Shown here: positions 8,472 to 9,080 of the stretch, piece after piece | Layout: every line of letters starts with the position of its first letter | How positions within the stretch are numbered: the stretch's first letter is position 1 | Assembly: GCF_044704955.1 (NCBI RefSeq) | Contig: NW_027252668.1 | Location: forward strand, 2,790,001 to 2,854,000 | DNA from: Pristiophorus japonicus | Taxonomy: Eukaryota | Direction: 5' to 3' | DNA: 64,000 nt | The notes under the pieces: generated by a model | What the model saw: the letters and a program-made list of their open reading frames with translations, nothing else | The model's database searches: none | Told to the model about the DNA's origin: nothing | Position numbers and translations under genes: made by a program

Positions 8472-9080
8472 TCACTTGGAGCTGGTGTACTTGGTCACCG
8501 CCTTTGTCCCTTCCGACACGGCGTGCTTGGCCAGCTCCCCGGGCAGCAGCAGGCGCACGGCGGTCTGGATCTCCCGGGAACTGATGGTGCGGCGCTTGTT
8601 GTAATGAGCCAGGCGGGAAGCCTCACCCGCGATGCGCTCGAAAATATCGCTTACAAACGAGTTCATGATGCCCATGGGCCTTGGAGGAGATGCCGGTGTC
8701 GGGGTGAACCTGCTTCATCACTTTGTAGATGTAGATGGCGTAACTCTCCTTCCTCGACTTTCTGCGCCTCTTGCCTCTCTTCGCTGGGGTTTTCTTGATT
8801 ACTTTCTTGGCGGGGCCTGTTTTCTTTTTTTTTTATTCGTTGCCAATCTTTCCAATTCTTTGTCAAATCACAAACGCCAGAGGTCACCTTGCACACATCA
8901 AGGATCACTCTGCGCCAATGCTCTTAGCCAAAAGGCCTAGAGCCACTGCACCGTTCCTGGAAGTACTGCAATACCAGGTTCGTGCTATGGAGGTGGATGG
9001 GTCAGGCCCCCCACACACCTCCGTGGAGGTGGATGGGTCAAGCCACCCCACCCACCTCCTATGTTCTTTTCGTCGGCCGT
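8472..9080 (-). pseudogene. H2B: Histone H2B pseudogene interrupted by a retro-insertion
   Basis: C-terminal [18 protein letters not shown]...YTSSK; extra base near 8677; 12-bp deletion near 8811; start codon ACG at 9078-9080; 235-bp insertion at 8829-9063. Confidence 0.92.
8829..9063 (-). mobile_element. Poly(A)-tailed retroposon composed of U2 snRNA-derived hairpins
   Basis: Minus strand contains ACCTGGTATTGCAGTACTTCCAGGAACGGTGCA (U2 stem-loop IV) and GGCCTTTTGGCTAAGA (U2 stem-loop I); ends AATAAAAAAAAAA; TSD AAAAGAA (plus-strand TTCTTTT at 8822-8828 and 9064-9070). Confidence 0.85.

Follow-up and report, generated by a model that had tools for sequence, protein, structure and literature searches.

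The window analysed here is a 64,000-nt stretch of the Pristiophorus japonicus genome (RefSeq assembly GCF_044704955.1, contig NW_027252668.1, positions 2,790,001 to 2,854,000 of the forward strand). It holds six histone 3' stem-loops above the Rfam cut-off (576-621, 5579-5624, 8391-8436, 45409-45454, 49172-49217 and 49802-49847) and is therefore part of a histone cluster. One of its H2B genes is a pseudogene, with ACG as its start codon, a 12-nt deletion relative to a paralogue and a frameshift near 8677; it is split by a copy of a short retroposon family, termed here family B. The features at this locus, in which SL denotes stem-loop, are as follows.

8472..9080, minus strand: host H2B pseudogene, split by the family B copy at about codon 6
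8391..8436, minus strand: histone 3' stem-loop of the host H2B gene (Rfam RF00032, 34.9 bits)
8825..9062, minus strand: truncated family B copy, corresponding to positions 117-354 of a full-length copy; begins 4 nt past the Sm U-tract
9064..9070, minus strand: 5' target-site duplication (TSD), 7 bp, A-rich
9025..9059, minus strand: hairpin derived from U2 SL III, unit 1, 13-bp stem
8989..9022, minus strand: hairpin derived from U2 SL III, unit 2, a tandem duplicate of unit 1 that is missing from some copies
8948..8985, minus strand: hairpin derived from U2 SL IV, its 13-nt loop without inherited variant
8920..8943, minus strand: second copy of U2 SL I, its stem longer by two pairs
8835..8919, minus strand: tail, a hairpin at about 8916-8873 and an A-rich single strand; its ancestral form is shared with family A (below)
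8825..8834, minus strand: poly(A) tail, an A10 run
8822..8828, minus strand: 3' TSD, overlapping the A run

An earlier note, made from the sequence alone, had described these hairpins on the minus strand and a 7-bp TSD, and we find them where it placed them; the edges of the TSD are ambiguous because the duplication merges with the A run. The note had also read the 3' end as AATAAA plus poly(A). The A run is there; the AATAAA is merely a T ahead of it, and as a signal in family B we reject it, since it varies across subfamilies. The window copy is 98.7% identical to a full-length copy over 238 nt and lacks the first 116 nt. Folding, a check that the note had proposed, bears out its structured character: a 271-nt stretch reaches -109.6 kcal/mol (z -4.52), better than all 200 shuffles. 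A second proposed check, the Rfam U2 model, gives no match on the truncated window copy alone and 54.7-64.9 bits (cut-off 46) on all three full-length copies tested. A Prion_pknot match on the window copy was rejected as below cut-off; it arises because SL III is duplicated. The SL IV loop of U2 is the binding site of U2B''/U2A', and the SL IV-like loop at 8948..8985 may be a candidate site for these proteins. At about 9600-10020 on the minus strand, upstream of the H2B promoter, lies a tRNA-type SINE-like repeat, recognised by eye, in which ARAGORN found no tRNA.

Family B is multicopy, as the note had supposed. A genome search gave 850 candidates, and the 40 of these that were scored are 98-100% identical; genome-wide, a 25-mer of the tail has 4001 exact matches and a 24-mer of the head 2336, both lower bounds as exact matches, with 0 for reversed controls. 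A full-length copy is about 350 nt long, starts at U2 nt 1 and runs in the order U2 SL I, U1-derived hairpin, Sm tract, two SL III units, SL IV, second SL I, tail and poly(A), with an internal T5-6 run. The U1-derived hairpin comes from U1 nt 3-52, with a partial repeat, and replaces the branch-point recognition sequence and SL IIa/IIb of U2. Against the genome's own snRNA genes, B matches U2 1-35 at 94% and U1 3-52 at 84%; a full-length copy further matches the genome's own U2 gene over 124-186 (80%), 7-29 (91%) and 100-147 (74%). U2 nt 1-29, the U1-derived hairpin and the Sm U-tract are all upstream of the point at which the window copy begins. Thus the permuted order (III-III-IV-I) and the missing Sm region reported in the note are true of the window copy and not of the family, which is collinear with U2 and carries the Sm U-tract in its full-length copies; the apparent permutation results from 5' truncation together with an old dimer junction that is also seen in family A. 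The U1-derived module, family A, the fixed 5' cut-off, the copies within U2 genes and the interruption of the H2B pseudogene had not been part of that account.

With a size below 500 bp, a poly(A) tail and strict TSDs of 7-25 nt in 59 of 129 copies, B is virtually certain to be a SINE family; it is a young, structurally selected SINE of U2 and U1 parts, of the SINEU type. Three full-length copies gave no Rfam match to a tRNA, 5S or 7SL head. The family consists of many mosaic subfamilies. The Sm motif AU5-6G with a 3' stem-loop is present in array-type B (the subfamily of the U2 arrays described below) and in most A copies, and its A is lost in the commonest B heads. Gemin5 needs the A of the Sm site (PMC5143419), so this loss would weaken Sm assembly in the commonest B subfamilies. 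At loci L100, L122, L124 and L186, two or three B copies from differing subfamilies follow one another with the same TSD between them, which indicates that one nick site was used repeatedly. In a sequence run of a second organism a fraction of 0.32 of the words was present, which we do not count as evidence of distribution.

A sister family, A, has 538 exact tail matches (L362, L367 and others). Its copies are nearly the whole of U2, with the 3' arm of SL IIa deleted, followed by U2 nt 7 to about 38 and by the B tail in a shorter form. The tail joins at the position used by the LINE Keno, so the 3' module was likely an insertion there, read from U2 +1. The second SL I at 8920..8943 of the window is the head remnant of this ancestral 3' module (U2 nt 7-38 plus tail), in front of which a whole U2 RNA was likely added later. 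From the layouts we infer that B derives from an A-like ancestor in which the U1 hairpin would have been swapped into the middle, SL III duplicated and the tail hairpin lengthened, an order of events that rests on intermediates and not on a tree. Family A copies carry an intact Keno site and are themselves a target for B, A and Keno insertions.

The stems of family B appear to be kept by selection, as the note had proposed. Of 269 aligned copies, 223 have both SL III units, and in these we compared variants in the five main hairpins. Variants found in at least five copies comprise 30 at unpaired positions, three that keep a pair and none that breaks one (0/33), whereas the rarer variants comprise 47 unpaired, 31 pair-keeping and 55 pair-breaking. 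The difference between shared and rarer variants has p 5e-7, and when variants in at least four copies count as shared and the weak 3' tail is taken in, four of 38 non-CpG shared variants break a pair (p 7e-4); these Fisher p-values are optimistic, because the copies are related, some are duplicates and shared variants are not independent events. Loop positions vary at 6 of 9 in SL III-1, 4 of 8 in SL III-2 and 6 of 7 in the tail, and at 0 of 13 in SL IV. Two-sided stem changes also occur between families. The bulge of SL III is closed by a new G-C pair, SL I-2 is two pairs longer, and one pair of the tail stem is A-U in A, whereas an older B has G-U there and young B G-C. The hairpins and the SL IV loop were kept, while the branch-point helix and SL IIa have been mutated, paired or deleted. 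Together these observations support structural selection on B.

Relatives of the window copy sit inside U2 genes. The U2 tandem array of contig C19 has SINE bodies placed after the U2 head and before U2 nt 39, with the upstream flank unchanged, and every 3' junction in the array is poly(A) followed by U2 nt 39. The 110 kb examined on C19 contain four B units and eight U2 heads running into a LINE, several as tandem pairs; only one of the 13 U2 5' ends there continues into an intact U2 gene. Genome-wide there are 92 junctions of poly(A) to U2 nt 39, of which 88 were read and 47 of those are B copies, 18 of them in true U2 genes with promoter, three in true U2 without visible promoter and 26 in dispersed family A copies (overlapping loci were removed by hand for the junction and unit counts). 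The layout of the 18 units is U2 promoter, U2 nt 1-27/28, SINE body, poly(A), U2 nt 39-191 and U2 3' flank. Seventeen have promoter type 1 (C19, C1832, C1868 and C4309) and one has promoter type 2 (C9); the 17 have a single 5' junction in common and may go back to one insertion that array turnover multiplied. All 18 belong to one subfamily, which is not that of the window copy, and B is absent from all U2 units of contig C1003. A control for position in 299 loci unselected for nt 39 carries no weight, as it gave only two junctions, each at nt 39 and neither of them new. Position nt 39 is where the published U2 target of Keno and Utopia starts (PMC4640811), and the sequence downstream of the B junctions is that published as the Keno 3' target (PMC6136364).

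Dispersed copies of the array-type subfamily resemble the U2-resident units closely. This subfamily has 204 exact tail matches; the first 30, all dispersed, are without exception 98-100% identical to the array unit. Of these, 26 start at U2 nt 1-12 without promoter sequence and four start past the Sm tract, so they look as retrocopies of a U2-promoter transcript should. An exact search for promoter type 1 joined to the head variant of the window copy gave no match. One young-type B copy stands ahead of a true U2 3' part, without an upstream promoter. The U2 genes at L141-L144 and L197-L211 on C9 are of a second type, which differs in its flanks and its SL IV; they lie in units of 18-21 kb in which Keno tail, family A sequence and 3' fragments of U2 are nested. 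At two further C9 loci (L230, L231) another poly(A)-tailed element, which is not B, A or a Keno tail, stands at nt 39 of U2-like sequence.

The LINE of the arrays is 5753 nt long, with an ORF1 of 581 aa that has a zinc knuckle and an ORF2 of 1147 aa that has an APE endonuclease, a reverse transcriptase and a zf-RVT domain (PF03372, PF00078 and PF13966); twelve intact 1147-aa ORF2 frames lie in 110 kb of C19. One homologue, at 39%, bears the name TX1 149 kDa protein. It is like Keno in its APE and reverse transcriptase domains and in its 3' junction at U2 nt 39. It lacks strict U2 specificity: its tail has 113 exact matches, most of them outside U2 arrays, and none of the first 30 dispersed tails that were read leads straight into U2 nt 39. 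Ten of these 30 have a B copy within 100 nt downstream, and Keno-like copies use the same secondary sites as B. One such site, in an LTR-element-like repeat identified by eye, has at least 69 poly(A) junctions at a single position, and the first 30 of the 69 are 26 B, two A (one of them classed as 'other' by the automatic scoring), one Tx1 tail and one unclassified. The majority of B copies are dispersed, and their sites show only a weak preference for A followed by T/C (129 copies, 59 with strict TSD). The link to a Tx1-clade LINE that the note had drawn is upheld by the common nt-39 junction and these common secondary sites, and a Keno-type LINE is very likely the mobiliser of B. The exact donor is not fixed, because other Keno-related Tx1 families occur as fragments at 79-81% in the window; these families could do the copying. 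The insertions into the LTR-like repeat are antisense (L258 at about 1480-1830, and L312-L341), and CR1-like as well as other repeats contain further common sites (L096, L140, L304; L053, L259, L284, L288). The U2 array at G000:C19:69650000-69725039 (L147, L168-L177) is almost full of intact Keno-like LINEs, some in tandem pairs. The Keno-like LINE has its own slightly altered U2 head, which on C1003 is duplicated behind the host U2 5' part.

Because relatives of the window copy occupy U2 genes at the Keno site, the family was likely transcribed from the U2 promoter and copied by a Keno-like LINE. The window copy is a truncated young U2/U1 SINE that probably arose in this way. A U2-promoter source has good support for the array subfamily, and for the window copy's own subfamily it is favoured with less assurance. 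In the cycle that we propose, Pol II would read a U2-resident unit from U2 +1 into a capped RNA headed by the U2 5' end, and such a head would make an internal promoter unneeded. The RNA would mimic the core of the U2 snRNP (Sm, U2B''/U2A') for stability or routing, without a role in splicing; such functional mimicry seems somewhat more plausible than its absence. Keno ORF2 would prime on the B poly(A) at its own nick, and since B and the LINE have no common tail, the poly(A) would be what is recognised, as happens with L1 and Alu. On re-insertion into a U2 gene the element head would replace the host head and create a new source. The compound reading, in which B is a still active SINE whose whole cycle would be parasitic on the U2 gene and the snRNP pathway, its transcription from the U2 promoter being secured by a LINE that repeatedly inserts it at U2 nt 39, its RNA packaged with Sm and U2B''/U2A' with the splicing parts disabled, and the Sm site setting whole- or half-length copies, we hold to be evenly balanced between right and wrong.

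In a survey of the first 100 tail matches on contig C1 (99 analysed), 47 5' ends lie at nt 1-27 (49 with two that another alignment places there) and 39 between -1 and +16 relative to the U-tract end, with four more probably there as single-unit variants; of the remainder, four lie upstream of the U-tract cluster and three far downstream. Thirty-nine of 52 ends in a 26-nt interval gives p 3e-28 against a uniform distribution. About 40% of B copies, including that in the window, thus start immediately downstream of the Sm tract. Every tail type includes short copies, and family A shows the same cluster less often (7/61, with one row cut by a locus edge and rows neither full-length nor in the peak dropped). 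We rejected the idea that short copies are a separate subfamily, as short and long copies have 3' diagnostic sites in common; one site at the short-form edge does differ (p 0.007). An apparent second cut-off at SL III unit 2 consists mostly of single-unit variants. Groups with the canonical AU5G are short in 11 of 91 cases (A 7/61, array-type B 4/30), against 29 of 57 in an A-less subfamily (p 4e-7).

We tentatively favour the explanation that the U-tract, when unprotected, would be cut and the stable 3' half copied, giving the short form seen in the window, although we rate this at slightly under an even chance. It is less likely that the Sm ring, or the long hairpin just upstream, halts the reverse transcriptase at the U-tract. 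A halt would suit the ends, which fall 0-2 nt past the U-tract and tail off over about 16 nt much as full-length ends do past nt 1, and the recurrence of the cluster in family A. A block by the Sm ring predicts, however, that canonical groups should be short more often, the reverse of what is found, and heads with the longest paired foot are less truncated too. Since the A that Gemin5 needs is the one lost in the most truncated subfamily, cleavage at the U-tract is favoured over a block by an Sm ring.

A possible objection to U2-resident sources is that most B copies came from dispersed sources through unrelated Pol II promoters and were trimmed by nucleases to hairpin bases, the U2-resident units being one among many sources, or dead ends. 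Promoter-bearing copies of the commonest subfamilies were indeed not found, there are many mosaic subfamilies, both clusters of 5' ends lie near hairpin bases, and transcription driven from the flank has been proposed for SINEU-2 (Kojima 2015, PMC4494074). This objection has difficulty with the full-length copies, which end at U2 nt 1 with no common 5' extension beyond it, and with the near-identity of array-type dispersed copies to U2-resident units. U2 arrays are also collapsed or turned over in assemblies, which weighs against it further. We regard it as improbable.

Transcription from U2-resident units followed by Keno-like copying also accounts better for the units themselves than a second alternative, that they are variant-snRNA genes of the host that serve the cell, and that the dispersed copies arose from them as retrocopies. 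Such genes might be expected from the intact promoter and 3' flank, the canonical Sm site, the conserved SL IV loop and the several units per array. The internal poly(A) of variable length and the junction at the LINE nick site mark the units as insertions, subfamilies turn over fast and the units of C1003 have none, so this alternative is very improbable. Less probable still is the note's own second suggestion, that B is the structured 3' UTR of a Tx1 LINE. The Tx1-type choice of targets and the tandem arrangement with Keno would agree with it. The longer copies that the note had asked about do have a fixed head, at U2 nt 1, but none extends into a Tx1 ORF2 (0 of 99 sampled copies align past the U2 head); the tail has no likeness to that of the 5753-nt LINE, with which only the U2 5' end is in common, and Keno copies beside B are set apart by their own poly(A). 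Finally, although U2/U1 template-switch chimeras are known (PMC4494074) and the family probably began as one, independent chimeras or processed pseudogenes without a transposing unit would hardly yield thousands of copies with the same junctions and subfamily markers at 91-100% identity, so that this alternative, like the single-copy case that the note had named against itself, can be set aside with near certainty.

Among known systems, B works like crocodilian SINEU and fits its structural definition, a likeness that may reflect either homology or convergence. Both SINEU-1/2/3 and B are short poly(A) retroposons of U1 and U2 parts with an internal oligo-T; both show repeated 5' additions, partial duplications and tandem insertions around the TSD; and both have no tail in common with a LINE and a probable mobiliser of the Keno group of Tx1 (PMC4494074). 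In B we find each of the U1/U2 head, the size below 500 bp, the poly(A), the TSDs, the absence of a LINE-shared tail and a Tx1 partner suggested by common targets. No SINEU was found outside crocodilians in the study that described it, in which Mariner-N4 is the target (Kojima 2015, PMC4494074), whereas the targets seen for B are U2 nt 39 and other repeats; neither the preference for Mariner-N4_AMi nor the crocodilian distribution is seen in B, whose host looks by its repeat content like a cartilaginous fish. B further differs from published SINEU in its promoter-bearing U2-gene units, the intact LINE alongside, the selected stems and the concentration of half of the truncations at one site. 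A search of the listings of open-licence literature found no description of a shark or U2-resident SINEU.

Keno, a Tx1 family with an APE-type ORF2 as in the array LINE (PMC4640811), and Utopia have the same U2 nt-39 3' junction as found here (PMC4640811, PMC6136364). They are autonomous and B is not, and the parts of these papers that treat the two families mention no U2-derived non-autonomous partner (PMC4640811, PMC6136364); the Keno-like family here has a relaxed specificity compared with the U2-targeting Keno and Utopia. A parallel to B is found in the R2 SIDEs of 28S rDNA, which are non-autonomous, occupy their partner's site in a multicopy RNA gene and are transcribed by the host (PMC3414825). 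R2 SIDEs are internal R2/R1 deletions with a ribozyme (PMC3414825), while B is made of snRNA and contains no LINE sequence. Unlike R2 SIDEs, B retains the host RNA 5' end and has reached sites elsewhere by the thousand. Alu, too, is an internally deleted, dimerised derivative of a small RNA, 7SL, that has kept its protein-binding folds and engages a LINE through poly(A); it carries its own Pol III promoter internally and is bound by SRP9/14. B is similar in plan; in its case the promoter would be external, that of a Pol II snRNA gene, and the bound proteins those of the snRNP.

The paper that defines SINEU did not settle how these elements are transcribed (PMC4494074), and in 2018 their transcription was still called undemonstrated (PMC5786205). 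Family B offers a testable answer to how such promoterless elements get expressed. A single genome contains candidate sources with promoter, near-identical progeny, an intact LINE and an ancestral sister family, which opens promoter borrowing and snRNP mimicry to direct test. If the proposed cycle is true, it would be a general answer to the expression of snRNA-headed SINEs and would mean that SINEU arose outside crocodilians too. The U2 arrays described here also show occupation by a target-specific LINE together with its SINE.

The window itself carries two Keno-related Tx1 fragments. A second H2B gene (ATG at 52403) contains a LINE 3' fragment at 51859-52383 on the minus strand, 79% identical to the array LINE and flanked by a 10-bp TSD, at a site a few bases off the SINE site of the first H2B. 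The other, a 3' fragment of 1.5 kb at 46173-47592 on the plus strand, is 81% identical to the array LINE.
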